Positions 9,749 to 38,061 of a stretch of 64,000 bases of DNA are shown piece after piece. How positions within the stretch are numbered: the first letter of the stretch is position 1; each line of letters begins with the position of its first letter. Under the pieces are notes generated by a model. It was not told where the DNA came from, did not search any database, and worked only from the letters and a program-made list of their open reading frames with translations. The position numbers and the translations under genes were made by a program. The DNA lies in contig OZ241875.1 of the NCBI GenBank assembly GCA_965203325.1, forward strand, positions 3,680,001 to 3,744,000. Reading direction: 5' to 3'. This DNA comes from a bacterium (GTDB taxonomy: Bacteria > UBA8248).

Positions 9749-10030
9749 TCACTTCGAAGTTCTCTCAATCAGGGCTTCCAGGGCCCTCATGCTTTCGCGA
9801 TGGCGGGTTTCCAGAGCGGCCATGGTTTCTTCGTGCTGCCGTTTGCTTTGTGCTTCTCTTCTTTCGGTTCCACGCTGCATGAGTTTCAGCCCGTACCAGA
9901 TGAGCGCGCATTGTACGACGCCCACTATGAGTGAGATAAAGGCATGAATTGCTGAAATCCAGAGTCCTATCCGTGAAATCTCGATTCCTGCACGTGAAAT
10001 CTCGAGTGTTGCCATTTGAAATTCTGTCAT
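9749..10030 (-). CDS. Small single-TM coiled-coil hypothetical protein, copy 2 (93 aa)
   Basis: Differs from copy 1 only by conservative substitutions (L/I, M/I, R/K, D/E). Confidence 0.7.
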   Translation of the reverse strand: MTEFQMATLEISRAGIEISRIGLWISAIHAFISLIVGVVQCALIWYGLKLMQRGTERREAQSKRQHEETMAALETRHRESMRALEALIERTSK

Positions 10031-10217
10031 CTTTTCCTCTCCGCGGGTCTGGCTTGGGAGTGGAGTAGCCTCTCGAATATGACGCACGGGGGTGGGAAAA
10101 GCAACATCGGCCGTCGCCCGCGCCGCTGGTTCGGGATGGGCGATGGTCTTTTTACCTTGAGACGAGAAGGAGCCTGCCCGATATAGCGCATGGCGCGCCG
10201 TCGTCAAAGTGAAGGCC

Positions 10218-17106: not shown

Positions 17107-17393
17107 CCTGAGGGGGTTGTTGAAAAGTCCTGATGAACGAGGTGTTGACGCGACCGATGAGAGCAGATTTCACTCCCCCCTTGAGGGGGAGTCGCAGAAG
17201 CCGAGCGTTTTTTGCGAAGGCTGATGCGGTGGGGGGAGGTTTACTCTGTGGCATGTCCCCCCACCGGCGCGACTTCGGGCTTTGTCCTCGTCTTGCCGAC
17301 TCCCCCTCAAGGGGGGAGTTGATTTGAAATGCTCTTTGTGGAGAGAGATCGCCGCAGGTGACGTACACCGGCTTTTTCAGCAACCCCCTCAAG
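17107..17393. mobile_element. MITE-like element with terminal inverted repeats between E1 alpha and E1 beta
   Basis: GAGGGGGTTGTTGAAAA / TTTTCAGCAACCCCCTC termini enclosing the CACTCCCCCCTTGAGGGGGAGTC...GACTCCCCCTCAAGGGGGGAG palindrome; no ORF. Confidence 0.65.
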
Positions 17394-17550
17394 GGGGGAG
17401 TGAAAAAAGCTCAAGCAGCGGAGAGTGTTTTTCGAGAAGGAATGATGAATTGATCGGCAAAAAGAAGTTGCCAACCAAAGTATATAATTCCCCTGGAAAT
17501 TCCCGTTCCGTGGCGCGGCGCGCCCGGTGAAAACACTGGAGAGAAATGAG

Positions 17551-18531
17551 ATGCGAGAGATCACATTTGTGGATGCGTTGACCGAAGCCCATCACGAGGA
17601 GATGGAGCGCGATGAGCGCGTGATCGTCATGGGCGAGGACGTGGAGCTTGCCTACGTCTTCGGCGTGACGAAGGGCCTCGCGGAGAAATTCGGGCGCGAC
17701 CGCGTGCGCGATACGCCTATCAGCGAACTCGGCATCGTGGGCGCGGGCGTGGGCGCCGCCATGGCGGGTTACCGCCCCATCGTCGAGATCATGTTCATGG
17801 ATTTCATCATGCTGGCGATGGACCCGCTCATCAACCAGGCGGCCAAGCTGCGCTACATGCTGGGCGGGCAGTTGAGCGTGCCCCTGGTCGTGCGCACCCC
17901 CGGCGGCGGCGGCGTGCAGTACGGTCCCACGCACAGCCAGTGCCTGGAAGCCTGGTTCATGCAGATACCGGGCATCAAAGTGGCGGCGCCGAGCGACCCC
18001 GCCGACGCCAAGGGCCTCATGTGCGCGGCGATAAGGGACGACAACCCCGTGCTCATGGTGGAGCACAAGATGCTCTACAAGATGAAGGGTGCAGTCCCCG
18101 AGGGTGAGCACGTCACCCCCTTCGGGCAGGCCGCCGTGAAGCGCGAAGGCGGCGACATCACCCTCATCGGCGTGGGCTACCAGGTGCACAACTGCCTGGC
18201 GGCGGCGGATGAACTTGAAAAAGAGGGCATCAGCGCGGAAGTGGTCGACCCCAGGACGCTGGCCCCGCTCGACACCGCGACGCTCGCCGAATCGGTCCGC
18301 AAGACGAACCGCTGCATCATTGTCGAGGAAGGGCACTTGAGGAGCGGCGTGGGCTCTGAGATTTCCGCCGCCGTCCAGGAGGAAGCCTTCGACTACCTCG
18401 ACGCCCCCATCGGCCGCGTGGCCGCCCTCGACGCGCCCATCCCCTTCGAGCCCCGCCTCGAGGACTTCGTGCTCCCCAACACCGCCAACGTCGTCGACGC
18501 CGCGAAGAAGGCGCTGGGGGTGAGTGTGTAA
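17551..18531 (+). CDS. TPP-dependent 2-oxoacid/acetoin dehydrogenase E1 beta subunit
   Basis: MGEDV, RVRDTPISE, RPIVEIMFMDF, HSQCLEAW, EVVDPRTLAPLD. Confidence 0.93.
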   Translation: MREITFVDALTEAHHEEMERDERVIVMGEDVELAYVFGVTKGLAEKFGRDRVRDTPISELGIVGAGVGAAMAGYRPIVEIMFMDFIMLAMDPLINQAAKLRYMLGGQLSVPLVVRTPGGGGVQYGPTHSQCLEAWFMQIPGIKVAAPSDPADAKGLMCAAIRDDNPVLMVEHKMLYKMKGAVPEGEHVTPFGQAAVKREGGDITLIGVGYQVHNCLAAADELEKEGISAEVVDPRTLAPLDTATLAESVRKTNRCIIVEEGHLRSGVGSEISAAVQEEAFDYLDAPIGRVAALDAPIPFEPRLEDFVLPNTANVVDAAKKALGVSV

Positions 18532-19262: not shown

Positions 19263-19437
19263 GAAGATCACCAAGCGAACGAACGCGAAGAGACACCGAA
19301 TTCCGCAACCCCTCCTACCTCAGTCGGGTCAATCGCTCCTTCATCAATCGTGTTTGACCCTCACCGCATCCGCCTTTGCCAAAACGCCCTTGCATCCGAC
19401 CCGTTCGTGGACTATATTCAGCCCACAGGAGGCGGCC

Positions 19438-19713
19438 ATGACCCTTTCGAACCGGATAAAACCCATCAGTTACTTAAAGGCGCATGCCGCGGAGATCGTC
19501 CGTACGCTCGGGGAGCGGGGGGAGCCCCTGGTGATCACCCAGAACGGAGAAGCCAAGGTGGTCATGCAGGACATCGACAGTTACGAGCGGATGCAGGAGA
19601 CGCTCGCCCTGCTCAAGATTCTCGCCCTGGGCGACCGCCAGGTTGAAGCCGGGCGGACGCAACCCGCCGCCGATGTGACGGCGCGGCTCCGGGAGCGGCT
19701 ATCGGCCCGCTGA
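19438..19713 (+). CDS. Phd/YefM family antitoxin
   Basis: IKPISYLKAHAAEI...PLVITQNGEAKVV; overlaps toxin start (TGATG). Confidence 0.9.
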   Translation: MTLSNRIKPISYLKAHAAEIVRTLGERGEPLVITQNGEAKVVMQDIDSYERMQETLALLKILALGDRQVEAGRTQPAADVTARLRERLSAR

Positions 19714-22796: not shown

Positions 22797-23903
22797 ATGG
22801 ATGCCGGTGGATCGGAAACACAGGCGGTTGTGTCGACGGAAGACGCGGCTTCGGCGTTCGGCACCATCCTCGACGCTCTGTCTCGCGTCGTTTCCCCGGC
22901 GCTGATCGACGGCGCCGGCTGGGAACGCCTGCGCGCCGCGGTCGGAGGCTTGCCGGTCGACCCCGGCAGCGGTTTCGGTTTCGAGCTTCGGCTCGGCGAG
23001 CCAGCGGCCGGAACGGATTTCTATATCGCGCTGCCGCGCGGAAGCGCGCTCGCCGATCACTATATCCGGCACGGCGGACGCGCGGCGCCCGGTTCGGCGG
23101 CGGCGGCGCTGCGCGATCATCTCGCCGCGATAGATGCGGGCGCTCCGTGGGCGGAGGTTCTGGGCGTGGAGTTTGACGTCTCGTCCGGATCGCCCGGCGC
23201 CCCTCCCGGGCTGTTCGCGCGGCTCCGTTCCGACTCGGCGGAGACCGGCGCCGCCGGATTTCCGAGCGCGGAAACGGTGGCCGAATGGATCGCGGGCGCG
23301 GTCGGCCTGCGCCTGGCCGCGGGAGAGCGCGAGGCGCTCGAGCGGGCGTTCGACGAACTGGCGGCCGGCGGCGGCGCGGTCGATTGCGTCGGGATAATGC
23401 CGGGCCGCCCGGAGCGGGCGTTCAAGGTCAACAGCCGGTCCATGGAACCCGCGCAGGTGGCGCCCGCCCTGGAAAAGCTGCGATGGAGGGGGCCGATCGG
23501 CGAGGTCGAGGCCTTCTTGTCCTCGTTCGGGAGGCTGTTCCGCTCGCTCCGGCTCGCGGTCGGCGTCGCCGCCGGGGGTCTTTCGCCGCGCGTCGGCCTC
23601 GAACTGTTCCAGGGGACGCCGGGGTCGTTGAGCCACCCGGGAGTCGGCGACTGGGAGCCTTTCCTCGCCCGGCTGTGTGAGGACGGCCTGTGCCTGCCGG
23701 AGAAGATGGCCGGGCTGTTGGCCTGGCCCGGACGGGAAATCGTGTTCGGCGGGCGGCAGACCTTCGGCATATTGACGGGCCTCGCCCATTTCAAGGTTTC
23801 CTTCGAGAAACGCGGCGGCGGAGCCACGATCGAGGCGAAAACCTACCCGACCGTCGGCTATCTCCCCTTCGATGCGGTCGCGGCGCGATTCGGGTCGCGG
23901 TGA
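22797..23903 (+). CDS. Hypothetical RiPP-associated enzyme A (possible ABBA-fold aromatic prenyltransferase)
   Basis: Paralogous over its whole length to 29985..31013 (GWERL, FGFELRLG, VEFD, GLCLPEK, HFKVSF, AKTY); converges on the NHLM exporter; function inferred. Confidence 0.6.
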   Translation: MDAGGSETQAVVSTEDAASAFGTILDALSRVVSPALIDGAGWERLRAAVGGLPVDPGSGFGFELRLGEPAAGTDFYIALPRGSALADHYIRHGGRAAPGSAAAALRDHLAAIDAGAPWAEVLGVEFDVSSGSPGAPPGLFARLRSDSAETGAAGFPSAETVAEWIAGAVGLRLAAGEREALERAFDELAAGGGAVDCVGIMPGRPERAFKVNSRSMEPAQVAPALEKLRWRGPIGEVEAFLSSFGRLFRSLRLAVGVAAGGLSPRVGLELFQGTPGSLSHPGVGDWEPFLARLCEDGLCLPEKMAGLLAWPGREIVFGGRQTFGILTGLAHFKVSFEKRGGGATIEAKTYPTVGYLPFDAVAARFGSR

Positions 23904-23919
23904 AGCCCCGCCGGCGGAG

Positions 23920-26871
23920 TCAGTACATCTGCCGGCGAACCAGGTTGCGGAACGGGCCGTCCTGCCCGGCGAGCTCCTCGAAACGCCCCACCTGGACGAC
24001 GCGCCCGGCCTCGAGAACGTAGATGCGGTGCGCCTCGCGGATCGTCGATATCCTGTGGGCGATGACGATCCGTGTGGCGGCGGAGTTGCGGATGCCCTCC
24101 ATCAGGGCCGCCTGACTCTTGCGGTCCAGCCAGTTCGTGGCCTCGTCGAGGAAGACGATGCGCGGGTTTCGCGCCAGCGCGGCGGCGACGCGGATGCGCT
24201 GGCTCTGGCCGCCGGACACGACGGCCGCCCGTTCTCCCATGCTGGTGTGCATCTGTATGGGCATCAAGGCGATGTCGTCGTCCACGGCCGCCTGTTTCGC
24301 GGCGCGCCAAGCGTCGTCCATCGTCAAGGTTCGGCTGAGGCCGATGATGTTGTCGAGAACGGTGCCCAGCTGGACGCCTCCGTCCTGGAGCACCACGCCG
24401 ACCTGCCGGCGCACGGAGACCGGGTCGAGATGGGCGAGGTCGCGGTCGTCGTAATAGACGGCGCCCCCCGCCGGCGTCTCGAGGCCGAGCGCGAGGCGAA
24501 CCAGCGTGCTCTTGCCGGAGCCGGACTCGCCGACAATGGCGATGAATTCACTCGGCCCGGCGTGGATCGTCACGCGGTCCAGAACCAGTGGCCCGTCTTC
24601 GGTGTAGCGGAAACTCACGGTCTCGAAGCGTAGCCCGCCGTCGAGCGCGACCGGAGGAGCGGAACCGCGCCCGGCCTCGGGCGTGGCGGCGAGGATGGGC
24701 AGAACCTGTTCGCAGGCCGGCGCGACCGAGGCGATGGTCTCCAGCGCGCCGCAGAGTGAGACGATGGCCGCGTAGAAGACCATCGAGGCGATATAGACGA
24801 CGAGGAACCCGCCGACCCCCGGGCCGCCTTCCTCGGGCGAATGGACGGCGGCGGCGAACAGGGCCGCAGCCGCCAGCAGGGGCACGGCCGCGCTGAAGGC
24901 ATGGAGATGTTCGTTCAGGACGCCGATGCGGATGTCTGCCAGCTTCTGCTCGCGGTAGCGCCGCGCCCAGGACGCCCGCGCCGACCCTTCCGCCCCGGCG
25001 GCTTGCAGTTTGTCGACGCAGCCGATGAGCTGGGAGAGGTGCCCGGCGAGAAGGCGCTCCTCCCGGAACCGTCGTCGCTGGGGGGCCGTCTGCGCCGCTC
25101 CGAACGCGGCCGCCACGACCAGCGCGGCGACGCCGATGCCCAGCACCAGCTGGCCGAGCGCGGCGTCGTAAAGGAACACGAAGGAGATCGAGGGGATGAG
25201 AAACGCGGCGGACAGCAGCGCCGTCGCCGTCGCCCCGGAGATGCGGTCCCGCAGCGCCTGGAACACCGACGCCCTCATGGATATCTCGCCCGAACTGTAT
25301 TCGCCGTAGAACCGGGTCTGCAACCGCAGCAAGCGGTCCCAGAGCGCGGCGGTCACGCGCGCGGCGAGCCGGCCCTCGATCCGCATGACGGCGGCGCCGC
25401 GCAGCACGTGGGCGAGCGCCGCCGTGAGCGCGACCAGCGCCAGCAGCAGCGCAAACTGCACGAGCCGCCCGCCCTCGCCCGAGGGGATCACGTGCCGGAC
25501 CAGCACGCCGATGCCCACCGCCGGCGCCAGGGCCAGGATACTCGCCGCAAACCCGGTGACGAACACCCGGGCGATATCGGGGGCGAACCTGCCGGAGGCG
25601 TTCGACAGCAGCGAACGCACGCCGCCGGGCGCATCGTCGGGCAGCGGCCGGTAAAGGATGTAGGCGTCGGCCGTCAGCGTATCGGCGTCCGCCCGCCGGA
25701 CCTGCCTGGTCCGGCCCGTTTTCGGGTCGTAGAGTCGATACCGCCCCATCGCCCCGGGCAGGAGGGCGACGGGCCAGCCGCCCTCGCGCCGGAAGGCCAG
25801 CATCGCGCCGCTGTCGCCGCGCCACCAGCGCTCCTCCGGCGAGAGCCGCACCAGCCGCGTCCGCACGCCCGATGCCTGCGCGAGATCGTTCAGGGTCGGC
25901 GGCTCGCGCGAGGGGCCGGACGGCGCTCGGATGTCGATGCGCCCGTGGCGCCCTACCGCGCGAAGCGCGTCGAGCAGCGCCTCGCCGCCGGAGACAGCCT
26001 GCGGAGGCGGTTCGAGGAGACCGAACAACCGCCCCCGAGCCTCGTCCTCGTCGCGGCGGCGCCACTCCGCCCGGTTGACCTGGAGGTTGGCCTGATCGAC
26101 CAGCGCCAGCCGCCGGTTGAATATCTCCGCCCCGAAGACCAGGCGGTGAAACCCCGGCAGCGCGCGGAAGAGCAGCGCCTCGACCTCGAGGGTGCGCGAA
26201 GTCAGAACCCCGATCTCGGCGGGTTCGCGGAGCACGGCCCAACTGTCCGGGGTGAGCGGCACCGCCTCCCCCTCCTCGGGGTCCTCGGTGCCGAAGAGTT
26301 GCGCCTCGGCCCCCTGCACCCAGACGACGCCCCCGCCGCTCGTCAGGACGCCGCTCGCCTCGATCCCTGCGCTTTCGGCCAGCAGTGCGTCGGGGCGCGG
26401 ACGGGGAACGATCTCGGCGGCGACCGTTGCGCTGAAGCCGATAATCCAGTTGTCGGCGTCTTCGGCGACGACGTCGGAGAGCGGGGCGGCGGCGAGTTCG
26501 GCGGCCGGAATCCGGCGCAAGACGGTGTCCGGCAGCCCCTTGGCCATCAAGTACATCTGGTCGGCGCCAGCGGCGCCGAAGGCCAGCCGGCCGGCTTCCA
26601 GGCGCAGCGCGTGGTGAAACGGCGCCTCCGCCACGCCGTCGTCGTTGTAGACGAAAAAGACGTCGAGGACGCCGCGCTCGACGAACCAGACGCTCCCGGG
26701 GTCGTCGAGCCGCACGGGCCGGTTGCCCGCCGTGGCGACGGTCTCGCCCGCGGACGCGGCCATTTGGGCGAGACGGCGGCGGCGCGGATCGGATGTCCAC
26801 GGACCGCGCGGTTCAGGAGGCATGGAAGAGCTCCCTGTAGGGACTGCCTTCGACGGCGATGAGGTCGTCAT
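23920..26871 (-). CDS. NHLM bacteriocin system ABC transporter permease/ATP-binding subunit (no peptidase)
   Basis: LDDPGSVWFVERGVLDVF N-terminus, WWRGDSGAMLAF, GESGSGKST, SGGQSQR, LDEATNWLD. Confidence 0.88.
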   Translation of the reverse strand: MTTSSPSKAVPTGSSSMPPEPRGPWTSDPRRRRLAQMAASAGETVATAGNRPVRLDDPGSVWFVERGVLDVFFVYNDDGVAEAPFHHALRLEAGRLAFGAAGADQMYLMAKGLPDTVLRRIPAAELAAAPLSDVVAEDADNWIIGFSATVAAEIVPRPRPDALLAESAGIEASGVLTSGGGVVWVQGAEAQLFGTEDPEEGEAVPLTPDSWAVLREPAEIGVLTSRTLEVEALLFRALPGFHRLVFGAEIFNRRLALVDQANLQVNRAEWRRRDEDEARGRLFGLLEPPPQAVSGGEALLDALRAVGRHGRIDIRAPSGPSREPPTLNDLAQASGVRTRLVRLSPEERWWRGDSGAMLAFRREGGWPVALLPGAMGRYRLYDPKTGRTRQVRRADADTLTADAYILYRPLPDDAPGGVRSLLSNASGRFAPDIARVFVTGFAASILALAPAVGIGVLVRHVIPSGEGGRLVQFALLLALVALTAALAHVLRGAAVMRIEGRLAARVTAALWDRLLRLQTRFYGEYSSGEISMRASVFQALRDRISGATATALLSAAFLIPSISFVFLYDAALGQLVLGIGVAALVVAAAFGAAQTAPQRRRFREERLLAGHLSQLIGCVDKLQAAGAEGSARASWARRYREQKLADIRIGVLNEHLHAFSAAVPLLAAAALFAAAVHSPEEGGPGVGGFLVVYIASMVFYAAIVSLCGALETIASVAPACEQVLPILAATPEAGRGSAPPVALDGGLRFETVSFRYTEDGPLVLDRVTIHAGPSEFIAIVGESGSGKSTLVRLALGLETPAGGAVYYDDRDLAHLDPVSVRRQVGVVLQDGGVQLGTVLDNIIGLSRTLTMDDAWRAAKQAAVDDDIALMPIQMHTSMGERAAVVSGGQSQRIRVAAALARNPRIVFLDEATNWLDRKSQAALMEGIRNSAATRIVIAHRISTIREAHRIYVLEAGRVVQVGRFEELAGQDGPFRNLVRRQMY

Positions 26872-29020
26872 GGATGCCGTCCTGTACCGCGCGTCCGCCG
26901 TCGAGCACGATAATCCGGTCGCTGTCGCGGATCGTGCTCAGGCGGTGGGCGACGATCAGGCAGGAGCAGCCCCGGCGGCGCAATGCGTCGTCGATATAGA
27001 CTTCGGTGGTGGCGTCGAGCGCAGCCGTGGCCTCGTCGAGAATCAGCACCGCCGGGGAGGAAACCAGCGCGCGGGCGATCTCCAGCCGCTGGCGCTGACC
27101 GCCGCTGAAATTGCGTCCATCCTCCTCGATCGCGTCGTCGTAGCCGCGCGGGCGCACCATAATCTCGTCATGGATCGCCGCGTCCCGCGCCGCGGCGATC
27201 AGGAGCGGGTCGGGGACGTTCGGGTCCCAAAGGGTCAGGTTCTCGCGAATCGATCCCTCAATGAGCGCCGTCTTCTGGGTCACGACCGAGAGCGAATCGT
27301 TGAGCACGTCGCGCGGGATGTCCTCGGGCTTCATCCCGTCGAAGAGAATCTCGCCCGACCAGGGCTGGTATATTCCCGCAGCCAGCAGCGACAGCGTGGA
27401 CTTGCCCGATCCGCTGGGGCCGACGACGGCGACGCGCTGGCCGGGATCGATGGTGAGGTTGAACCCGTCGATCAGCGGCGCCCGATGCCGCTGAAACCCG
27501 AATGTGACGTTGCGCATCTCGACCCGGCCGCGCAAGCGGAGCCGTCCGCGCACGGTCGCGACGCCCTGCGCGGTGGGCCGCTTCGCCTCGCTCGGGGCGT
27601 CCTGCTCCTGGGCGTCGAGCATGTCGTCGAGCCGCTCGAGTTCCGCTTCGAGCGTGCGCAGCAGTTCTGCGAACTGCACGAACCGGCCGATCGGCTGGAA
27701 GAAATGCCAAGCCAGCATGTAGAACGCGAGCAGGCCCCCGAGGCCCATCTCTCCGGACATTACCCGCCATCCGCCGAGCCCGAGCACCGTCGCTCCGCCG
27801 AGCGCGATGAACAGAACCGGGATGGCCTCGGTGACGTGCCCGAGCTCCTGGAACCCCTGCCGGGCGTTGAGTTCGCGCGCCTGGTGTCCGCTCCAGCGAG
27901 CGAAGAAATCATCTTCCGAAGCGGTCGCCCTGATGGTCTCCATGATGCGCAATCCGGCGAGACCGACGCCCGTCAACAGACCCTGCTCACGGCGCAGGCT
28001 GTGGCTTGCATCGGTCCGGTAGCGGCAGACAGCCCGGGCCGCGGCCGCGCACGACGCCGCGAGGAGCGCGACCCAGAACGCGAGGGCCGCATCGTAGACT
28101 ACCATCAGCAAGAAGAACGCGAGACTCATCGTCAACTCGACCGTCACGCCCACCATCTGGTTCACCCCGAAGGCGGCGACCTGCTCGATCGATTGTATAC
28201 GCGACAGCAGATCCCCCGTCATGCGCCGGGCGAAGAACTGGGCCGGCCGGCGTAGCAGGCCGCCCAGGAAGCGGTCCGTCTGGTGGATGGCGACGGCGAT
28301 CGACAATCGGCGCAGCGCGCGCTGGCGGAGCCAGGTGAAGACATAGACGACGATGGCGGCGGTCGTCATCCCGCCGATCAGCGCGCCACTCCAGTCGTCC
28401 TGGCTGCCCGCGAGAACGTGATCGACGAACAGCGCCAACAGCACCGGAGCGGCGACGCCCGGAGCGGCGAGCAACAGCCCGGCGAGGACGGCGAACAGGA
28501 GTTCCGACCGGAAGCCGCTCACCCAGGGCCACAGCCGGCGCAGCACCCCCGGAGGCGGTTCGTTGCGGCGAAACGATTCGGCCGGCTTGAGTTCCAGGGC
28601 CACGCCTGTGAAGGCGCGGTCGAAGCCGTCTTCGTCGACCACGCGCCGGCCACGGCTCGGGTCGTTGAGGAAATACTTTCCCTTCCCGACCCCCTCCAGC
28701 ACGACGAAATGCCGGAACTCCCAGAACAATATGGCCGGCAAGGGCAGTTTGGGGATGTCTTCGAGTTCTTGCTTCCAGCCCGTGACTTCCAGGCCGTATT
28801 CCCGCGCCGCGCGTACGATATCGGCGGCGGAGCAGCCGTCGCGGCCGACGCCGCAGGCTTCTCGCATCTCCTCGAGCGGCACCCAGCGCCCGAAATAAGC
28901 GAGCACCGAGGCGAGGCACGCGGCACCGCATTCGGTCGCCTCCAGCTGAAGCACCAAGGGCGTGCGGACGCGGCGCCCGAACGGGCGCCGCAGCCACTTT
29001 CTCAAACGATCAGCCGACAC
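26813..29020 (-). CDS. NHLM bacteriocin system ABC transporter with C39 peptidase domain
   Basis: VRTPLVLQLEATECGAACL (catalytic Cys), HFVVLEG, LNDP; GPSGSGKST, FSGGQRQR; GTG start overlapping the HlyD stop. Confidence 0.92.
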   Translation of the reverse strand: MSADRLRKWLRRPFGRRVRTPLVLQLEATECGAACLASVLAYFGRWVPLEEMREACGVGRDGCSAADIVRAAREYGLEVTGWKQELEDIPKLPLPAILFWEFRHFVVLEGVGKGKYFLNDPSRGRRVVDEDGFDRAFTGVALELKPAESFRRNEPPPGVLRRLWPWVSGFRSELLFAVLAGLLLAAPGVAAPVLLALFVDHVLAGSQDDWSGALIGGMTTAAIVVYVFTWLRQRALRRLSIAVAIHQTDRFLGGLLRRPAQFFARRMTGDLLSRIQSIEQVAAFGVNQMVGVTVELTMSLAFFLLMVVYDAALAFWVALLAASCAAAARAVCRYRTDASHSLRREQGLLTGVGLAGLRIMETIRATASEDDFFARWSGHQARELNARQGFQELGHVTEAIPVLFIALGGATVLGLGGWRVMSGEMGLGGLLAFYMLAWHFFQPIGRFVQFAELLRTLEAELERLDDMLDAQEQDAPSEAKRPTAQGVATVRGRLRLRGRVEMRNVTFGFQRHRAPLIDGFNLTIDPGQRVAVVGPSGSGKSTLSLLAAGIYQPWSGEILFDGMKPEDIPRDVLNDSLSVVTQKTALIEGSIRENLTLWDPNVPDPLLIAAARDAAIHDEIMVRPRGYDDAIEEDGRNFSGGQRQRLEIARALVSSPAVLILDEATAALDATTEVYIDDALRRRGCSCLIVAHRLSTIRDSDRIIVLDGGRAVQDGIHDDLIAVEGSPYRELFHAS

Positions 29021-29984
29021 GGCCGACGCCTCGCCTCGGCGATCGGAGCAGGAGACCGAATGGAGAGGTGTGTTCGAGGACAATCTCGATCCGGCAAGGC
29101 GTCCCGTCCTCGAGGCGCCCCCCCGGCGGGCTCCCGGCGGGGGGATCGAGCCCCGCAGGGTCCGTAATCGCGAAGCGCAGGACATGGCCCGGACCCCGGG
29201 CCGCGGCGTCCGGGCGCATCCGCGCAAGCCAGGCCGGGGGGCTCGATGCACGCGGCGTGATCGACACGAGTCTGGCCGGAAGCAGCCGACCCCCTCCGGG
29301 CGACTCGACGCGCACCCGCGCCTCCATGCCGGGGGTGAGCACCCACGAGTCCCCCGGCGCGGCGAAGGCGACCGCCTCCAGCACTCCACCGCCGCCGAAC
29401 ACGATATCGGCGATCGGGGCGCCGACCGGGAGCGTCTGGCCGGGCGCGACGAGAATTGCGGCGACCACGCCGTCGGCGGGGCTCGCGACGGCGCCGGTTC
29501 CCTGGAGCGCCGCGAGTTCGTCGAGCATGGCCCGGACCGAAGTCAGCAATTGCCGCGTTTCGGCGGAACCGGCGCTCGCCGCGCCTTTCGCTTCGTTCTC
29601 CAGCCGGCGGACGGATGCGGCGGCGGAACGCACCCGTCGCTCCATCTCGGAGAGGGCGATGCGGACGATTGCTTGGCCGGCGGCCGCCCGTTCTCCCTCG
29701 GGCGTCACAATCTCGGCGACCTCGCCCGAAACGCCGGAGAGCAGGGTGCGCCGCTCGCCGGAGATAACCAGCACGCCGCCCGAGCGCAGTGTCCGCTCCA
29801 AGCTGCCGAACAGTCCCCAGACGACGAGCGCGGCCACGGCCGCTGCGAAAAAGGCGAGAACCGCCCATTCGCGCGGGGCGGTGAGTTGCGCGCGCTCATC
29901 CAGTGATTCTGGCTCGGCGTTGCGAATGACGGCGTTCTCCCGAAACTGACTGGAGCCCAATCTGGCCAAAAGCCTCTTCCTCAA
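29010..29984 (-). CDS. NHLM bacteriocin system HlyD-family secretion protein
   Basis: FRENAV...PESLDE...TAPREW, TM anchor with WGLFGSL, VASPADGVV, C-terminal TPCRIEIV...SPFGLL. Confidence 0.85.
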   Translation of the reverse strand: MRKRLLARLGSSQFRENAVIRNAEPESLDERAQLTAPREWAVLAFFAAAVAALVVWGLFGSLERTLRSGGVLVISGERRTLLSGVSGEVAEIVTPEGERAAAGQAIVRIALSEMERRVRSAAASVRRLENEAKGAASAGSAETRQLLTSVRAMLDELAALQGTGAVASPADGVVAAILVAPGQTLPVGAPIADIVFGGGGVLEAVAFAAPGDSWVLTPGMEARVRVESPGGGRLLPARLVSITPRASSPPAWLARMRPDAAARGPGHVLRFAITDPAGLDPPAGSPPGGRLEDGTPCRIEIVLEHTSPFGLLLRSPRRGVGRVG

Positions 29985-31013
29985 TCAAGACAGGGGGTGA
30001 AGGACGCAGACGATATAGCCCTTTGCGGCCGCGGGGCCCTCACCGAAGGCGGGGCCGCTCCGCCCCGCCGGGGGGAAAGCGAGCTTGACGTGGTTGATTC
30101 CGAAAATGAAATCGAAGACCCCGAAGCGCGAGAAAATCCGTTCTCTATGAGTCCCCGCCAAGCCGCCGAGCGCGGCCGCCTTCTCCGGCAGGCACCAGCC
30201 TTTGCGGGTCATCATATCGAGCGTCTCCTTCAAGGCCGTGTTGGCCTGCTCCGGCTGGGACAATTCGATGCCGAGGCCGGGCGAAACGCGCCCCGCCGCC
30301 ACGTCGAGGGCGAAGACGCGATTGTCGACTCCACAGGCGCGGAACTCCGATAAAACCGCCTCGAGCGCCGCCTCGTCGCCGACCCGGCCCATCTCGCCCA
30401 GGAACGACACGCCACCGTCCTTTGGGGAGCGCACCAGCAGGCGCACGGCACGCTCCCGGTCCGGGAACGCGCCGACCCAGCGAATCGAAGCGCCGCCCGG
30501 CAGGGCGGCGAAGACGCGGGCGATCTCGGCGCGTTCGGCAGTATCCTCGCCCCAGCCCGCGGCCAAGCGGACAGCGTCGCTCACCACGCCGGCATGCGCA
30601 TAACCTCCCCCGGCGCAACGCAGAAACACGCCCGGGGCCGGAGAGTCTTCTACGCCGACAATATCATATTCGAGCGCAACGAGGTCAACCGACGCCGCAA
30701 GCGGGGAATCGGCCTTCTTCAGTTCGAAGAGGAAACGGGCGAGAGACGCGGCTCCGGGGCCGCCCGAACCCCCCTGTCGAACGAGCGCGTCGGAGAAGCG
30801 CGCGTCGGGAGGGACAGACAACAACAAATCGGCCGAGGCTTCCCGGTCACCGAGACGGAACTCCAGCCCGAACGCGGCATCCGCGGCGGACGGCGGTAGA
30901 TTCCCGGCCCGCGCAATCAGCCGTTCCCAACCTGGGCCGTCCAGCAACGCCTCCGGCAACACAGAGCGGGCAAGGAGAAGGATATCGGAAAGACTCCGCG
31001 CTTCCGCACCCAA
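29985..31013 (-). CDS. Hypothetical RiPP-associated enzyme B (possible ABBA-fold aromatic prenyltransferase)
   Basis: AAGGAG RBS and TTG start 14 nt after the precursor stop; stop abuts the HlyD start; paralogue of 22797..23903. Confidence 0.65.
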   Translation of the reverse strand: MGAEARSLSDILLLARSVLPEALLDGPGWERLIARAGNLPPSAADAAFGLEFRLGDREASADLLLSVPPDARFSDALVRQGGSGGPGAASLARFLFELKKADSPLAASVDLVALEYDIVGVEDSPAPGVFLRCAGGGYAHAGVVSDAVRLAAGWGEDTAERAEIARVFAALPGGASIRWVGAFPDRERAVRLLVRSPKDGGVSFLGEMGRVGDEAALEAVLSEFRACGVDNRVFALDVAAGRVSPGLGIELSQPEQANTALKETLDMMTRKGWCLPEKAAALGGLAGTHRERIFSRFGVFDFIFGINHVKLAFPPAGRSGPAFGEGPAAAKGYIVCVLHPLS

Positions 31014-31027
31014 GGGCGAGTCGCTCC

Positions 31028-31300
31028 TTAATAGTATATCGCCCCTGCGGCGGTCTCGAGTTCGGCTTCGGTGAGTTTCTTCGAGCGCGGCAGCACCAGA
31101 TGAGCGGTCGTCGCGTCTTCCTCGTGGACGAACAGCTTCAGGCTCTCCGGCACGACGAGGTCATAGTCTTCGCGCAGAACCTCCTTCGGATCCGCCAGCA
31201 GCCGGGCGCGAAATTCTTCGCTCTCGGCCGCTTCCGCAAGAAGTCGGTCTCGAAGATCGGATGCCGTCATCGCGCCGCGCGCGGTTTCAACTTTCTTCAT
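31028..31300 (-). CDS. NHLP (nitrile hydratase-like leader) RiPP precursor; predicted core IYY or AIYY
   Basis: AESEEFRARLLADPKEVL...VPESLKLFVHEED...HLVLP...LTEAELETAAGA-IYY; AGGAGG RBS; first gene of the exporter operon. Confidence 0.9.
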   Translation of the reverse strand: MKKVETARGAMTASDLRDRLLAEAAESEEFRARLLADPKEVLREDYDLVVPESLKLFVHEEDATTAHLVLPRSKKLTEAELETAAGAIYY

Positions 31301-31353
31301 TACCCACCTCCTTCTGGTTTTATCTTGGAAAATCCGCTCAACGCGAACAATCC

Positions 31354-31385
31354 ATTGTATTTTACATCGGCGGAGTTACTGTCAA
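31354..31385 (-). promoter_or_regulatory. Candidate hybrid sigma70 promoter for the precursor operon
   Basis: TTGACA (31385-31380, inside the IS256 end) followed by TAAAAT at 15 nt and TACAAT at 20 nt spacing. Confidence 0.35.
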
Positions 31386-31885
31386 ATGTTGTGTATGGCC
31401 GTCCTGAATCCAGCGGCCCTCCTGCCTGTTTCTTTTTCCTCCACCCCATTGATGAACCTCACGTCGGCGAGATGACGGAAGCCGCGTAGCCGGCGCCACC
31501 GCTTCCCGGCGCTCATAGCTAACGGATGCACAAGGCTCAGCGCCGCCGGGAAGTTGCAGAAGGCGAACAACTTCTCCCGATCCGGTTTGCCACCTCCACG
31601 TACAATGCAAACCCAACCACCGGATTCATCTTTCATTATACCAAAACTATCTATCTGTTTCATATTCAATACCTTTATTATCATACTTTTTTCGTGTATT
31701 ATATAATTTTTAGGCCGCGTAGCCGGCGCCATCGCTTCTCGGCGCTCATGGCGAGCTGATGCACGAGGCACAGCGCCGTCTTCTCACTCAGGCAGTTCCT
31801 GGTCTTCGCCGTTCGCAAGCGAATGGTGGCGAAGGTCGACTCGATGGGGTTCGTCGTCCGTAGATGCCCCCCAGTGCGCCGCCTT
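31371..31885 (-). mobile_element. Fragmented IS256-family transposase remnants with terminal repeat
   Basis: Minus-strand fragments HWGHLRTTNPIESTFATIRLRTAKTRNCLS...MSAEKRWRRLRG and DREKLFAFCNFP...KRWRRLRGF, ending in CATACACAACATTTGACAGTAACTCC. Confidence 0.8.
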
Positions 31886-32079
31886 CTTCAATTCAGCCCA
31901 TACACGAGATCCGAGGGTAACTCCATCGGCGAGGGATGTGATGTAAAGAAACCTTTAAGGGCGTGATGGTGGCCCCCCCTCGGCGTTTCCCCGTCTCCGG
32001 CCGGCTTGCATATTCCCCGAGCGGCGCGATATTCTTCGCGACGACGCTTGGCGCGCCAACCCTGCCGAGGGAGAGGGGG

Positions 32080-33342
32080 ATGTCCGGAAACGGCGCAACA
32101 CGGTTCGAGGAGATGGTCGCTTTTTACAGCGGCCGCGCGCGCTCGCCGTTCGCCGACTATTTCGCCGATCCTTACCGATTCTTCGCGTGGGCCAGGGCCG
32201 AGGCGCCCGTCCTGCACGTGCCGGAAGTCGACTGGTGGGCGGTCGCCCGTTTTGACGATATCATGTCGGTCTTCCGGGACCTGGAAACCTTCTCTACGGC
32301 CAACGTCCGTCGGCCCATGGCGCCGCTTTGTCCCAGGGCAATGGAGATTTACGAGTCGGCCGCTATCCGGATGGAGCCGACGCTGATCGACGAGGAGCCG
32401 CAGACCCATCGCCGTCACCGGCGCATCTTCGGCGAGGGTTTTTCCGCGCGGCGCGTCGAGCGCTACGAGCCGAGAATCCGCGCAATCGTTTCGCGCCTTA
32501 TCGAGGATTTCGCGGGCGAGGGCCGCGCGGACCTTCACGTCCGGCTTCTGCAGCCGACCGCCGGCAGAATGACCTTTCATCTTCTCGGCGGCGCCGACGA
32601 GGATTTCGATCTGGCCGACTGGCCAGGCGGGATGCGGCGGGTCGAAATCCTGGGACCCCCGACGGAGGCGGCGCAAGTCTCGTTCATGGAAATCCTCGCC
32701 CGGTTGTGGCCCTTCGGCGGCAGGCTGGCCGAGGCCGCGATCAAAAATCCTGGCGACAACTATCTCGGCGACCTCGTCCGGCTGCGTCGCGAGGACCCCT
32801 CCCTGTTCACGGATAACTACTTTCACAACGTCGTGCTCCTGCTGCAAACCGCCGGAGCGGACAACCAGAGCCACGCGCTGGCCAACGGTATCCGGGCGAT
32901 GCTCGATGCCCGGACGCCTTGGGAGCGCCTGTGCGCCGACCCCGGCCTCATCCCCAACGCTGTGGAGGAAATCCTGCGTTTCGGCACGCCCCTCATCGCG
33001 TTTCCGAGGCTCGCGACCCGCGACGCCGAGATCGGCGGGCGGCGAATCGCCGCAGGCTCCGGGATTTTGCTGCTGCTCGCTTCCGGCAACCGCGACGAGA
33101 CCGTGTTCCCGGACGGCGAGACGCTGGACATCGAGCGCGAGAATGCCGGAGATCACCTCTCGTTCGGCTACGGTGCGCATTTCTGTCTCGGGGCGCCGCT
33201 CGCCCGACTCGAGATGAAGATTATCCTGGAGGAGTTGACCTCGCGCCTGCCCCACATGCGGCTGGCCGACGGCGGCGTTCCGGACGTATTTCGGACGTTC
33301 ACGTTCCGGGGGCTGAAGCGCCTGCCCGTCGAATGGGATTGA
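32080..33342 (+). CDS. Cytochrome P450
   Basis: EEILR (ExxR), SGNRDE, HLSFGYGAHFCLGA heme motif; I-helix AGADN. Confidence 0.95.
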   Translation: MSGNGATRFEEMVAFYSGRARSPFADYFADPYRFFAWARAEAPVLHVPEVDWWAVARFDDIMSVFRDLETFSTANVRRPMAPLCPRAMEIYESAAIRMEPTLIDEEPQTHRRHRRIFGEGFSARRVERYEPRIRAIVSRLIEDFAGEGRADLHVRLLQPTAGRMTFHLLGGADEDFDLADWPGGMRRVEILGPPTEAAQVSFMEILARLWPFGGRLAEAAIKNPGDNYLGDLVRLRREDPSLFTDNYFHNVVLLLQTAGADNQSHALANGIRAMLDARTPWERLCADPGLIPNAVEEILRFGTPLIAFPRLATRDAEIGGRRIAAGSGILLLLASGNRDETVFPDGETLDIERENAGDHLSFGYGAHFCLGAPLARLEMKIILEELTSRLPHMRLADGGVPDVFRTFTFRGLKRLPVEWD

Positions 33343-33547
33343 GCGGAGCCCGTCGCGCGTCCGGCCCCGGGCGACCGGGAGTGAGGCGGCGAGAGCGGGG
33401 CGCGTTGCCCTGCGCCGCGCCGGGGGACGGAACCCGCCTCGTTTCGTCGTTCGCAAACGCAGTTTCATGTCTGGATTCGACGGACTCGCCGCGGCCGCTC
33501 CGTTCCGGGCGATTCGTCGATATTCAACGGACCCAAGGAGGGAGCGA

Positions 33548-34420
33548 ATGAACCCCGCAGAAACGGCTTCGTCCGGTGGAAAGGAAATGGAGAGGTCGGT
33601 TTCCGACCTTTACGCCGCGCTGACCGAACTCGTGGTGAAGAAAAACCCGGATACGCTGTCGATTCATCGCGGCCTTTGGGGGCCGGACACGAAGACCAGT
33701 CGGGAAGGCCTGGAGCGCGCCAACCGCATTCTGGCGCGGGGATGCCGCCTCGACCCGGAACGGCGCGTGCTGGACGCCGGCTGCGGCGTGGGCGGCACGG
33801 CGATCTTCCTGGCTGAGGAATACGGCGTCCGGGTCACCGGATTGACGATCTGCGAGCCACATGTCGCCGTGGCGACTCAATATGCGGAAGAGCGCGGGGT
33901 CGGCCATCTGGTCGAGTTCCGGCACGGGGACTTCATGGATTTGCCGTTCGCCGACGAGAGTTTCGACGTGGTGCTGAACCACGAATCCTTCTGTTACGCG
34001 GAAGACAAGCCCGCCTATCTCCGGGGCGTCTACCGGGTGCTCAAGCCCGGGGGGCGCTGGCAGGCCCTCGACGCGGAACTGCTGAGCGGCGCGCCGAAGT
34101 CCGAAGAGCACCAGGCGCTCGTCGCCGCCGTGGAGCGAAACTGGCGCCTGCCGCCCCTCCCGCCGTGGCGCGACGTGCTCGCCATGGTCGAGGAGGCGGG
34201 CTTTACGGAAATCGAGGAACGGGACCTCTCCGCCGAAGCGCTGCCGTCGACGGAGCTCATCCGCAAGGGCTACACGTTGTTTTTATTCCTGAACCCGCAA
34301 TTCGGCGAGATGAATCCCGCCGCCCAGGAGTTTATGGACGCGAGCGTCTGCTACGCCCAGGGATTGTCGCAAGGCCTGTTCACTTACCGCTTCATCTCCG
34401 GAACGCGGCCGACTCAATGA
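33548..34420 (+). CDS. Class I SAM-dependent methyltransferase
   Basis: IHRGLW, VLDAGCGVGG, GDFMDLPFADESFDVV, RVLKPGG; AAGGAGG RBS. Confidence 0.9.
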   Translation: MNPAETASSGGKEMERSVSDLYAALTELVVKKNPDTLSIHRGLWGPDTKTSREGLERANRILARGCRLDPERRVLDAGCGVGGTAIFLAEEYGVRVTGLTICEPHVAVATQYAEERGVGHLVEFRHGDFMDLPFADESFDVVLNHESFCYAEDKPAYLRGVYRVLKPGGRWQALDAELLSGAPKSEEHQALVAAVERNWRLPPLPPWRDVLAMVEEAGFTEIEERDLSAEALPSTELIRKGYTLFLFLNPQFGEMNPAAQEFMDASVCYAQGLSQGLFTYRFISGTRPTQ

Positions 34421-34781: not shown

Positions 34782-35824
34782 CGTTCACTCCTTTGGTTGT
34801 CCTCGAGCGAGGGGATGGTTGAATTCGGGAAGAGCGTAGCCACGCTCGTTGCGCCCCACTTCTTTTGGCATCTCGTCGAGATACCCGGCGGCCCACTCGG
34901 CGGCGCGCCGGCGGTGGCGTTCGCGCTCTTTCCTGCGTCCCTCCTCGGGGTCCTTGTAGGGCATCCGTCTCTCCCCCCTCAGCGCCGACTGCTTTGGCCG
35001 AAGAGGCCGATCGAATAGACACCCCAATACTGGACTCCGCTGTCCCTGGTGCGCAGGCCCGTGCAGACGATGATCTCGTCCCGCGCGGGCCGCATCTCCC
35101 GGACGGCTTTCCGGGTGGCCGTAGCTTTCTTCGTCTTGCGCCCGCTCCCGGTCTTCGCTTCCGCAGCGGGCATGGGGCGGATCTCGCCGTCCATCGCGGA
35201 CTTGAACCGTTCCACGGCGTATCGCTCGTCTTCGAGCCCCCGGCCGAAGGTGTGGGTGAGGAAGGTGTTCGACTCTCGCATGGTCGCCCGCATCGCGCGC
35301 CTCCTTGCTGTGGGTGGTCGGGAAGGCGGAGAACGTCCTCTCCCGGACGCCCTTCCGCCGCCCCCTCCAGGCCAGGCTCTGCCTCTCGCCGGCGCGGGGC
35401 TTGGGCGAGGCGCTTTGCGGAAAAAATTTTTTGTCATATCCCCGCGCAGCCGGTCGTATGCGAGCCCCGCCCGTATGACGTCGGAGGATCGATCGGGACG
35501 AAGGTTCGAACGCGAAGGAGAGACGCATATGAACCGAAACGACGGGAACAGCCTGAGCGCACGAGTGCGCCGCCTGCTCGCGGCGGGGGCGGACCGCGAG
35601 CCTCTCGAGAAAAAATAATCACAAACTGCCTGGAAAATCAGGAAATTTCCCGGAAATCAGTTGCAATCCCTGTCACCTCGACCCACATTTGTTTCGTCCG
35701 CCTGCGCCGCTTCGGCGGGACCGGTTCTGCCGCCGGCGGGACGGCAAATGCGCGAAGGACGTCTTCGCACCGGCCGCTTCGGGTTCAGCAAGACTTCCCG
35801 GCGCCGAAGAAAGGGTGAATCACG

Positions 35825-36226
35825 ATGAGAATTCAGACGCGGCCCGTCATCATCGATCAGGCGGATTTGCCCTGGGAAGGGTGGGAGGATGCCGCTGTCG
35901 CCGCGCGCAGCGCCATCCGCTGGAAACTCCTGACCGCGGGCGAACGCACGGGGAGCGCCGGGCTCGTCACCGGCATCGCGGAGATTCCGCCGGGCGAGCG
36001 GCTCCTGTTGCATCACCACGGGCCGGAAGAGACCTATTACATCGTGCAGGGGCGCGGGCGCATGGAAATCGACGACCGTGCGGCCGACATCGGGCCCGGA
36101 TGCGCCGCCTATATTCCGCCCAATGCCAGGCACACGTTGCACTGTACCGGCGCGGAACCCCTCATCCTGGTATTCTCGTTCGCACGTGACCGCTTCGACC
36201 AGGTCGACTACCACTTCGACGAATAG
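35825..36226 (+). CDS. Cupin protein resembling DMSP lyases DddK/DddW
   Basis: RWKLL...GSAGLVTGIAEIPPG...LHHHGPEETY...YIPPNARH...DRFDQVDY. Confidence 0.7.
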   Translation: MRIQTRPVIIDQADLPWEGWEDAAVAARSAIRWKLLTAGERTGSAGLVTGIAEIPPGERLLLHHHGPEETYYIVQGRGRMEIDDRAADIGPGCAAYIPPNARHTLHCTGAEPLILVFSFARDRFDQVDYHFDE

Positions 36227-36429
36227 CGCCTCGCCGTCATCGGTCTGCGTATAACCGCTCAATGCGCGGACCGGGCCGTGCAACCCGATCGCGCCATGGC
36301 GGCACCGCTTCCCGCCGGAAATATTCGAGATCCTCATTCGTGCAGCGCTTTGCCGGCTGAAGAAGGAGTCGGGTGACGACCGCTCTTCGAGGCCGTCCCG
36401 CACCGGGGAGGATGTGTTCCGGAGGGTTT

Positions 36430-36673
36430 TCCTACAGCAGGTCTTCGGCGATGCTCTCCGCCACCCGCTCGGCGGACTCGCGCAGCGGCTCACCGTCACG
36501 CGCCTGGGGCCTTCCGGTCCACGCGCCTGGGCGACGTAGACTTTTGAGCCGGTGGGGTAGACCCGCACCTCGAAGCCGGTGAGGTCCCTGTCCCAGAACA
36601 CCGTGTCCTTCTCGACCGTGAGTTTCCTCACCAACCGGTTCGAGAGCGTTTTCATCATGGACTTCGTCGTCAT
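36430..36673 (-). pseudogene. Tyrosine integrase 2, internally deleted
   Basis: N-terminus LSNRLVRKLTVEKDTVFWDRDLTGFEVRVYPTGSKVYVAQARG joined directly to a C-terminal ESAERVAESIAEDLL-like tail. Confidence 0.7.
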
Positions 36674-37721
36674 CGCTCCATCCTCCCGTTCGTGACGTGG
36701 ACGCCGATGCTCTCGCCCACGCGGGCGGCCGCCGCCTTCTCGGCCTCGCGCATCAGGTGCGCGTAGCGCGCCGTGCTCACCACGTGACGGTGTCCGAGCA
36801 GCCTGCCGATCGCCGATAAACTCTCGCCGAGCGCCAGCGCCCGGCTGGCGTACGAGTGCCGGAGGTCATGAATGCGGACATCATGAAGCCCCGCCCGCTC
36901 CCTCACGGCCTCCCACTAGTAGGAGAGATTCAACGGGCGGCCGTTCCCGTTCCCTCTGGAGATCACCCAGGGGTCCTCCGGCGAGCGGGGGATCCCCTCC
37001 AGCACCCTCTTGGCGGGCGCCGTGAGCGGTACCATGCGCGGACCCGCCTTGGCGTCCCTCAAGCGCAGCTCGCCCGTCATGCGGTCCACGTCGTCCCAGT
37101 GCAAGTCCAGTATCTCGCCCCTCCGGCAACCGGTCAGCGGCGAAGCCCCCGGCAGGGGTTCTCCCCGGGCGGGAGAAGGCCCCACGCCTCGGCCATCTTG
37201 AACATCTTGGAGAGCAGTCCCAGGAACGCGTTGGCCGCGACGGGCGTCGCGCGCAGGCCGTGATGAAGCGCCGATACCTCCGCCCGGCCGACATCGGCGA
37301 GCGACTTCCCGCCCAGCGCCGGAAGGATGTGGTTCCCGATATAGGAGCGGTACGACTCAGCGGTGTCGGGCTTGCAGTGCGTTTCGGCATGGTCGCGCAT
37401 GAAGCGCCCGGCAAGCCCCGCCACCGTGGGCACGGCCTCGGGAGGCCCGGGCTCGGGCTCCTCGCCCCGCTTGATGCGGTCGATGACGCCGGCCGCCGTC
37501 TTCCTCGCCTCATCACACGACATCTCGCCGTGTCTGCCCAGCGCCACGCGCTTCGGCCCCCACGGACCCCGGGACTGCACCACGTAGACTTTCCGGCCCG
37601 TGGCGTATACCCGCACCCCGAAACCCGCCAGTTCCCGGTCCCAGAAGACGGCGTCGTCCTTCTCGACGGATAGCGCGTCGACGACGCGTTTGGTAAGCTT
37701 GCGTTCGCTTCTTTTGGGCAT
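36670..37721 (-). pseudogene. Tyrosine integrase 1 (Arm-DNA-binding type), frameshifted and deleted
   Basis: Pieces in three frames: KLTKRVVDAL...FWDRELAGFGVRV; LTGCRRGEILDLHW...DAKAGPR; RIHDLRHSYAS...LLGH...TARYAHL. Confidence 0.88.
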
Positions 37722-38061
37722 GGGCGCTCCCCGGAAAATCGTGTCACGGACCGGAGGACATGGACGAGCCGTAATCAAATCGCATACGTCCGGCATCAAA
37801 TATGCGTCCGTTATAGCGTAAATATGACGTAAACGAAAAGGGGAGCGAAAAAGAAAGTGTGATAATTACCGCTTTTAATACAGCAGTTTATCGTGTTTTA
37901 GGGTGTCCAGTCGTACGATTGTCCGTAGGGTGAGACTATGAACGTGTCTTTCGATAAATTTCTGAACAGAAAAAATGCCGGTGTGAGATAATTGCGTCCT
38001 CAAAAATGGCGGAAGCGAGGGGAGTACGCCCCCGGATCGATGGCGTAAAAGGAGGCGCGAG

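Follow-up and report, generated by a model that had tools for sequence, protein, structure and literature searches.

Two paralogous predicted PT-barrel proteins beside an NHLP-type exporter: candidate enzymes for modifying a precursor peptide that ends in Tyr-Tyr

The stretch of DNA analyzed here (the window) comprises 64,000 nucleotides from a bacterium of the lineage UBA8248 (contig OZ241875.1 of GenBank assembly GCA_965203325.1, positions 3,680,001 to 3,744,000). Open reading frame (ORF) calls and their translations place five genes in an 8.2-kb span, 22797..31013: two ORFs of similar sequence, which we term A and B, occupy the exact ends of the span, and three exporter genes lie between them. 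ORF A (22797..23903, plus strand) encodes 368 amino acids and is convergent with the exporter genes, while ORF B (29985..31013, minus strand) starts at a TTG codon and encodes 342 amino acids. Just outside the span, 14 nucleotides upstream of B and on the same strand, is a gene (31028..31300) for a 90-amino-acid precursor of a peptide that is made by the ribosome and modified post-translationally (RiPP), with a leader of the NHLP type. Both A and B are predicted to fold as prenyltransferase barrels (PT-barrels) of the ABBA type. Predicted fold, conserved gene neighborhood, a Tyr-Tyr ending shared among related precursors and a docking model together suggest that A and B most likely attach prenyl groups to the precursor peptide.

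A first-pass annotation of the window, made from the sequence alone, had described A and B as paralogs flanking an exporter, and BLASTP and hidden Markov model (HMM) matches bear this out. A and B align over 331 columns with 32% identity (E = 8e-26), far beyond chance. The shared motifs reported in that annotation do occur in the same order in the A/B alignment: ALIDGAGWERL in A with ALLDGPGWERL in B, FGFELRLG with FGLEFRLG, EFD with EYD, PGLF with PGVF, RPERA with RERA, SPRVGLEL with SPGLGIEL, GLCLPEK with GWCLPEK, HFKVSF with HVKLAF, and AKTY with AKGY. The pattern given as RxERA needs correction, as it fits A only; B lacks the spacer residue. In a FastTree phylogeny of 147 family members, the 12 A orthologs and the 11 B orthologs form separate clades, each with a support of 100, that are not sisters of one another. 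This topology suggests that A and B separated into subfamilies long ago and do not stem from a recent duplication. The 68 close homologs of A are without exception unnamed or annotated as "hypothetical". An exhaustive phmmer search with B at E <= 1e-3 returned 461 clusters (50% identity), of which 183 reach E <= 1e-10 and 20 reach E <= 1e-30.

The ABBA fold had initially been proposed from sequence patterns, with AlphaFold and Foldseek named as the means of checking it, and this comparison recovered a PT-barrel for both proteins. The AlphaFold2 model of A, built from a family alignment of 22 sequences, has a mean predicted local distance difference test score (pLDDT) of 85.7 and a predicted template modeling score (pTM) of 0.86; that of B, from 66 sequences, scores 93.6 and 0.92. 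DSSP assigns the same order of elements to both models, five repeats of helix-helix-strand-strand. They are thus alpha/beta barrels in the AlphaFold2 predictions, not the all-helical isoprenoid-synthase fold of the PalQ/ComQ type. Foldseek searches of the PDB gave 97 matches for A and 87 for B at E <= 1e-3, and among the matches listed, ABBA/DMATS aromatic prenyltransferases account for 33 of 33 (A) and 40 of 40 (B), with a probability of 1.00. The best match for A is AmbP1 (5yk9; E 1.5e-7, TM score 0.58 on the target), and further matches listed are CymD, NphB/Orf2, AmbP3, EpzP, CloQ, PriB and DMATS1. For B the best match is IptA (7w8v; E 3.2e-6), and PriB, the Streptomyces coelicolor 5-DMATS (6zrz/6zs0), AmbP1, EpzP, CloQ, TleC, CdpNPT, FunA and NotF are also among the matches listed; the cyanobactin enzymes LimF (E 8.6e-5) and PagF (E 2e-4) stand lower in the list. 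As a separate lead, the nearest named ESM-Atlas clusters (scores of 0.89-0.92) include minorities of members labeled Trp_DMAT (12%), DUF5838 (12%) and PTase_Orf2 (41%).

Conservation of individual residues was counted over 129 distant homologs, in which mean column identity is 19%, and the count shows that the motifs extend across the family. Positions conserved in at least 90% of these sequences are, in B numbering, E51, D62, E115, D117, P127, G181, R186, R191, H308, K310, K331 and Y333; of these, E51, D62 and D117 are invariant in a set of 66 sequences. The ten charged or tyrosine positions of this set (E51, D62, E115, D117, R186, R191, H308, K310, K331 and Y333) are all kept in both A and B. 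In the AlphaFold2 model of B the conserved polar residues fall on predicted strands (48-53, 61-67, 109-116, 190-195, 298-313 and 329-341), with the exception of D117, which lies one residue past a strand, and R186, which lies in a loop between two strands. The set includes one H-x-K and one K-x-Y pair. ABBA enzymes are described in a review as neutralizing the diphosphate of their substrate with positively charged residues and tyrosines, and Asp62 of NphB as binding Mg2+ (PMC7973389). By analogy, the H-x-K, K-x-Y and arginine pattern of A and B would fit this diphosphate-binding logic.

The precursor ends ...LTEAELETAAGAIYY, with a tail of ...AAGAIYY, and its core is presumed to be AIYY or IYY. 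We looked for related loci by scanning species-representative genomes with 12 close A orthologs. This gave 10 loci, all in metagenome-assembled genomes (MAGs) and, by the nature of the search, biased toward A-type orthologs; they are labeled Alphaproteobacteria (4), Rhodospirillales (2), Spirochaetia (2), Acidobacteria (1) and simply "bacterium" (1). The presence of each gene was scored by tblastn with the window proteins. Orthologs of A (56-70% identity) and of the precursor (66-72% identity to that of the window) were found in all 10 loci and full-length B in eight; of the other two, L002 retains a 62-amino-acid remnant of B and L006 has none. In the window and in each of the eight loci with B, the gene immediately upstream of B on the same strand is that of the precursor. 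Otherwise gene order differs among the loci (A and the precursor gene diverge in L004 and L005, for instance, and the P450 genes follow A), and the flanks of the 10 loci are unrelated to each other.

The tails of the precursors support the suggestion in the first-pass annotation that two tyrosines are involved. The C-terminal YY is kept in 10 of the 11 orthologous precursors (window plus 10 loci), preceded by a variable spacer of 1-3 residues; the tails are AIYY in the window, AYY (four loci), SGGYY (two), SSYY, GAYY, GNLYY and, in L002, AQFW. That each enzyme serves one tyrosine would be a further step. All 11 share the L(X)4L motif (L76-L81) and Gly86 without variation. The sole precursor ending in FW is that of L002, an Alphaproteobacteria MAG (17306-18028), where A and the exporter are intact and B is reduced to the remnant; no P450 was found anywhere in this 21-kb locus. 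This single case fits a scheme in which B and the P450 act on the penultimate tyrosine and A acts on the last residue. In L009, we also observed a second, truncated NHLP-like ORF (14800-15090) with neither the L(X)4L/Gly motif nor a YY tail, and a second copy of B (17521-18438) cut off by the end of the contig.

A model of B in complex with the precursor gave an ipSAE interface score of 0.65, and the best of three controls scored 0.00. Among solved complexes 116 of 157 attain the mark used for this score, and among mismatched pairs 2 of 215 do; these counts are rough since we supplied our own alignments. Repeated runs share at least 80% of contacts, and the pLDDT of the partner is at least 77. 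On the B side the modeled contacts involve a hairpin (288-307), the C-terminal strand (335-342) and the N-terminal helix; on the precursor side they involve residues 8-16, 42-54 and 72-89, including L76, G86 and Y89. The model supports binding of the precursor leader to B. The pattern of contacts fits the docking outlined for other NHLP leaders, which are described as engaging their enzymes through a folded nucleus and the L(X)4L region (10.64898/2026.10.04.756588).

The three genes between A and B encode an NHLP-type exporter made up of an HlyD adaptor, an ATP-binding cassette (ABC) protein with a C39 peptidase, and a second ABC protein. All three are on the minus strand. The start of the HlyD-family adaptor gene (29010..29984; PF13437, E 7.7e-9) abuts the stop codon of B. 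The C39-peptidase/permease/ATPase gene (26813..29020; Peptidase_C39, E 2.8e-33) probably starts at the GTG at 29020, and its open frame extends to 29389. The last gene (23920..26871; TIGR03797, E 3.7e-202; PF00005 and PF00664) encodes a protein of the NHLP-type bacteriocin export permease/ATPase subunit class. TIGR03794, TIGR03796 and TIGR03797 are the top-ranked models for the three proteins, and one of the three clears its curated cutoff: TIGR03796 on the C39-ABC protein scores 881.9 bits, above the cutoff of 853.3, TIGR03797 on the second ABC protein falls slightly short (673.5 against 709.4) and TIGR03794 on the adaptor is well under (75.9 against 156.2). The precursor passes the TIGR03793 leader model (54.9 bits, cutoff 50.9), and the cluster is therefore NHLP-type (proteusin-like). 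Among the related loci, the exporter is complete in six of 10; the second ABC protein is near full-length in six, and the C39-ABC protein is 74-77% identical in six.

A cytochrome P450 gene (31963..33342, plus strand; PF00067) is divergent from the precursor operon and is followed by a class I S-adenosylmethionine (SAM)-dependent methyltransferase gene (33467..34420, plus strand; PF08241, E 6.9e-24). The nearest solved structures to the P450 are heme domains of the CYP116/RhF type (6ldl, E 7e-83). P450 genes are present in nine of the 10 related loci, all except L002, with two copies in L003, L004, L005 and L008; the methyltransferase occurs in four, with two copies in L006 and L010. Pfam and NCBIfam matching identified no PatA- or PatG-like genes among the cluster proteins of the window. 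Two ORFs beyond the methyltransferase (34785..35528 and 35657..36673, both on the minus strand) were dropped as cluster members, as a counterpart was found in none of the 10 related loci. An Asp/Asn beta-hydroxylase gene (PF05118), found directly upstream of A in L001 (9310-9867) and L006 (785-1366) and 83% identical between them, was likewise set aside; none of the other loci has it, nor does the window. The precursor and P450 genes diverge from an intergenic region of 660 nt, which includes a 65-nt direct repeat (31481-31545 and 31714-31778) whose copies are 88% identical and 233 nt apart. Read on the minus strand, the two copies encode ...AMSA(G/E)KRWRRLRG. This sequence has no Pfam match and presumably resembles the C-terminus of IS256-family transposases; the copies may therefore be insertion sequence remnants.

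The cluster looks like an acquired island. Its G+C content is 67-72% across 22-30 kb of the window, compared to 58-62% in the left flank and 62-66% in the right flank, and some 3 kb past the methyltransferase there is a truncated phage-type integrase (37134..37799, minus strand) with an Arm DNA-binding domain and an N-terminal SAM-like domain. Together with A orthologs that are 56-70% identical across phyla, these features indicate that the cluster moves horizontally. The ORF at 35657..36673 has a 57-amino-acid stretch (61% identity) in common with 37533..37703. Unrelated to the cluster are a Phd/YefM antitoxin gene to its left (19354-19713, plus strand) and, to its right in a stretch of lower G+C, a pair of genes for an HlyD/AcrB-type efflux system of the resistance-nodulation-division class (40365-44872, plus strand).

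A tblastn search of plasmids identified four more family genes, all four in RiPP clusters of the NHLP/Nif11 type and each the single family gene of its cluster. On plasmid pAB510a of Azospirillum sp. B510, TfuA, YcaO and LanM genes come after the family gene, and NHLP-type ABC exporters are nearby. This locus carries eight tandem NHLP precursors with hypervariable cores (26501-32385), of which seven end in Trp, mostly as Lys/Arg-Trp (KPW, RKW, IKW, GSW, RKW, AKW and AKW); the eighth looks frameshifted. The eight Azospirillum precursors are listed by Haft 2010 (PMC2887384), and the available part of that paper makes no mention of the adjacent barrel gene or of the C-terminal Trp. Plasmid pPg_03 of Pseudanabaena galeata has a LanM gene and a Nif11-leader precursor ending in ...PPIKW. 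Its barrel domain (8911-10704), which has all of the conserved residues, is fused to a C-terminal 2-oxoglutarate (2OG)-Fe(II) oxygenase (PF13640, residues 471-584), and the record annotates the fusion merely as "2OG-Fe(II) oxygenase". A search for longer fused forms, which is weak evidence, found none; six longer homologs have no extra Pfam domain. On plasmid pn1 of Nostoc sp. UHCC 0926, the cluster combines LanM and a radical-SAM enzyme with four precursors, two of the Nif11 and two of the NHLP type. On Acaryochloris pMB07 two ORFs make up the split family gene, and its neighbors are a Nif11 precursor, a radical-SAM C-methyltransferase and a SAM methyltransferase. The link of the family to long-leader RiPPs is thus general (14 of 14 contexts, or 15 with the window); a C-terminal aromatic residue often accompanies it, though not always.

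We favor, with a probability of roughly 0.55, the reading that A and B are members of a large PT-barrel (ABBA) branch that lacks annotation and tailors NHLP/Nif11-leader peptides, and we propose the following mechanism. The leader would dock on the outside of the last beta-hairpin of each enzyme, as modeled, and the disordered tail, with its L(X)4L motif and C-terminal Tyr-Tyr, would run toward the barrel. There an allylic prenyl diphosphate could be held by R186, R191, H308, K310, K331 and Y333 and alkylate the ring or the oxygen of a tyrosine, with E51, D62, E115 and D117 serving as base, as Mg2+ ligands, or both. The two anciently diverged paralogs would each serve one tyrosine. The P450 (or P450s) and methyltransferase (or methyltransferases) may then oxidize and methylate the tail further. 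Going by the known behavior of its family, the C39-ABC exporter would cut after the invariant Gly86 and export a modified peptide of 3-5 residues.

A number of observations weigh against this proposal. The structural match is at the level of the fold only (TM scores of 0.40-0.58, root-mean-square deviations of 6.7-9 A and 9-18% identity), so that the models indicate the ABBA fold in a very divergent form. Neither A nor B has a match in Pfam (E <= 1) or NCBIfam, including PF11468 (PTase_Orf2), PF11991 (Trp_DMAT) and PF19156; the prenyltransferase families of Pfam match none of the 129 family members, even at E <= 10; and the family profile, when searched against PDB sequences at E <= 10, retrieved no prenyltransferase and just two chance matches, to a transcription-repair factor (E ~0.36). 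That the conserved residues face the lumen of the barrel is itself a presumption. The four near-invariant acids exceed what is described of typical metal-independent ABBA sites (PMC7973389), and they could point to a different chemistry. L006 keeps its YY with A alone, although that locus also lacks HlyD, the C39-ABC protein and the N-terminal part of the second ABC protein. The four precursors of Nostoc (ending ILGGG, TVNK, QYVKS and QIVKS) have no terminal aromatic residue. The P450 is nearest to hydroxylases or dealkylases of the CYP116/RhF type, and its proposed role is accordingly tentative. Finally, and weakly, neither the window cluster nor the DNA up to 6 kb from the 10 loci yielded a prenyl-diphosphate synthase gene. 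Dimethylallyl diphosphate and farnesyl diphosphate are ubiquitous, and the absence of a synthase therefore weighs little.

Several of these points would be accommodated if A and B were PT-barrels with another chemistry on the peptide tail, using a different electrophile or a phospho-donor, or if they were leader-docking adaptors that present the tail to the P450 and the methyltransferase. We consider this a real, though distinctly less probable, alternative. The P450 and the methyltransferase have no recognizable leader-binding domain of their own, an adaptor would need the leader docking seen in the model as much as an enzyme would, and the oxygenase fusion of Pseudanabaena would also fit an adaptor; the acid-rich conserved set, the lack of sequence matches to prenyltransferase families and the clusters without a synthase gene agree with the idea. 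A pure adaptor, however, would have no need of ten polar residues that are at least 90% conserved against such low background identity, and these are kept in the oxygenase fusion too. With regard to another chemistry, every structural neighbor among the matches listed is a prenyltransferase, and the basic and tyrosine residues follow the ABBA pattern noted above. The co-occurrence of both paralogs in the window and in eight of the 10 loci, and their two fully supported clades, as expected of a co-inherited pair, could instead mean that A and B form an obligate heterodimer responsible for a single modification, the other possibility raised in the first-pass annotation. This seems unlikely to us: A is intact in L002, where B is down to 62 amino acids, and is the sole copy in L006; each of the four plasmid contexts has a single family gene; the full conserved set is present in both proteins, so that neither looks non-catalytic; and in the window the two genes are on opposite strands, about 6 kb apart, with a relative position that shifts between loci.

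Most improbable in our judgment is that A and B are aromatic prenyltransferases for small molecules, for example free tyrosine or a released dipeptide, that merely happen to lie near a RiPP exporter. Their closest structural neighbors (AmbP1, CymD, IptA, PriB and NphB) would be in keeping with such a role, and the peptide enzymes of cyanobactin pathways rank lower among the matches listed. Yet all 10 MAG loci and all four plasmid loci link the family tightly to NHLP/Nif11 precursors, the precursor gene is followed immediately by B, the score of the complex model is far above that of its controls (0.65 against 0.00), and in L002 the loss of B coincides with the change from YY to FW. A wider reading takes in the whole family. 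It is conceivable, if doubtful, that these proteins form an unnamed PT-barrel branch of at least 461 clusters (at 50% identity) dedicated to NHLP/Nif11-leader peptides, which reads the folded leader and derivatizes aromatic residues at or near the C-terminus. Here an 86-residue leader would act as a scaffold on which two barrels, one or two P450s and methyltransferases produce a very small, doubly alkylated and oxidized Tyr-Tyr metabolite, and the cluster would spread horizontally between phyla. In the boldest version of this wider reading, the acid-rich barrel site would carry out a chemistry other than prenyl transfer.

Comparison with known systems shows what A and B share with characterized enzymes and where they depart from them. 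NphB/Orf2, CloQ, EpzP, AmbP1, CymD, IptA and PriB resemble A and B in having the ten-strand barrel of five alpha-alpha-beta-beta repeats that is predicted here, and the soluble ABBA/DMATS enzymes likewise have conserved basic and tyrosine residues on their strands. Those enzymes belong to small-molecule pathways, whereas A and B lie in a RiPP cluster, have an unusually acid-rich set and show no detectable sequence similarity to them. The cyanobactin F-family (PagF, LynF, LimF and PirF) consists of ABBA enzymes that prenylate Tyr, Trp or His of ribosomal peptides. They are described as acting leader-free, after the leader has been removed (PMC12715784). In contrast, the leader is modeled as docking on B; moreover, A and B have no Pfam match to the F-family, and its members are not their nearest neighbors. 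A closer parallel is MppC of Moorena producens, described as a leader-dependent ABBA geranyltransferase of a lanthipeptide; it cannot do without a long, structured Nif11 leader in cis, and its target is an aromatic residue close to the C-terminus (PMC12715784; 10.64898/2026.10.04.756588). MppC is placed in the family of the cyanobactin enzymes (PMC12715784). Judged by these descriptions, A and B stand apart from it, as they match no cyanobactin-type sequence model and their substrate would be a linear ...YY tail of 3-5 residues, not a lanthionine ring.

The target may be compared as well. PalQ is reported to prenylate a conserved C-terminal Trp of an NHLP-type precursor (PMC10853753), a C-terminal aromatic target like the YY or W tails of the family precursors. 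PalQ and ComQ are there assigned the all-helical isoprenoid-synthase fold (PMC10853753), unlike the PT-barrel predicted for A and B. The biarylitides resemble the window cluster in having a minimal aromatic core beside a P450. Cittilins, too, combine a minimal aromatic core with a P450 and a methyltransferase. Both groups differ in having very short leaders, or no long ones, and no known PT-barrel proteins, and the P450 of the window is nearest to the CYP116/RhF type. Our literature search identified no paper that deals with the A/B family, with YY-terminated NHLP precursors or with the family member of Azospirillum. What is new here is accordingly the sequence-orphan barrel family, the conserved pair and the minimal ...YY core; leader-dependent ABBA prenylation (MppC) and prenylation of the C-terminal Trp of an NHLP precursor (PalQ) were already known.

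Prenylation and other lipidations of RiPPs are of value in the production of drug-like peptides, and few enzyme families carry them out. The A/B family, which is invisible to Pfam and NCBIfam models, is a candidate for leader-guided modification of a C-terminal Tyr or Trp. The A/B pair itself may offer a natural system of two enzymes and two residues for the study of regioselectivity, and the presumed core of 3-5 residues would be among the shortest carried on an NHLP leader. More generally, annotation based on predicted fold can give function to "hypothetical" genes that recur in the RiPP clusters of uncultured bacteria.

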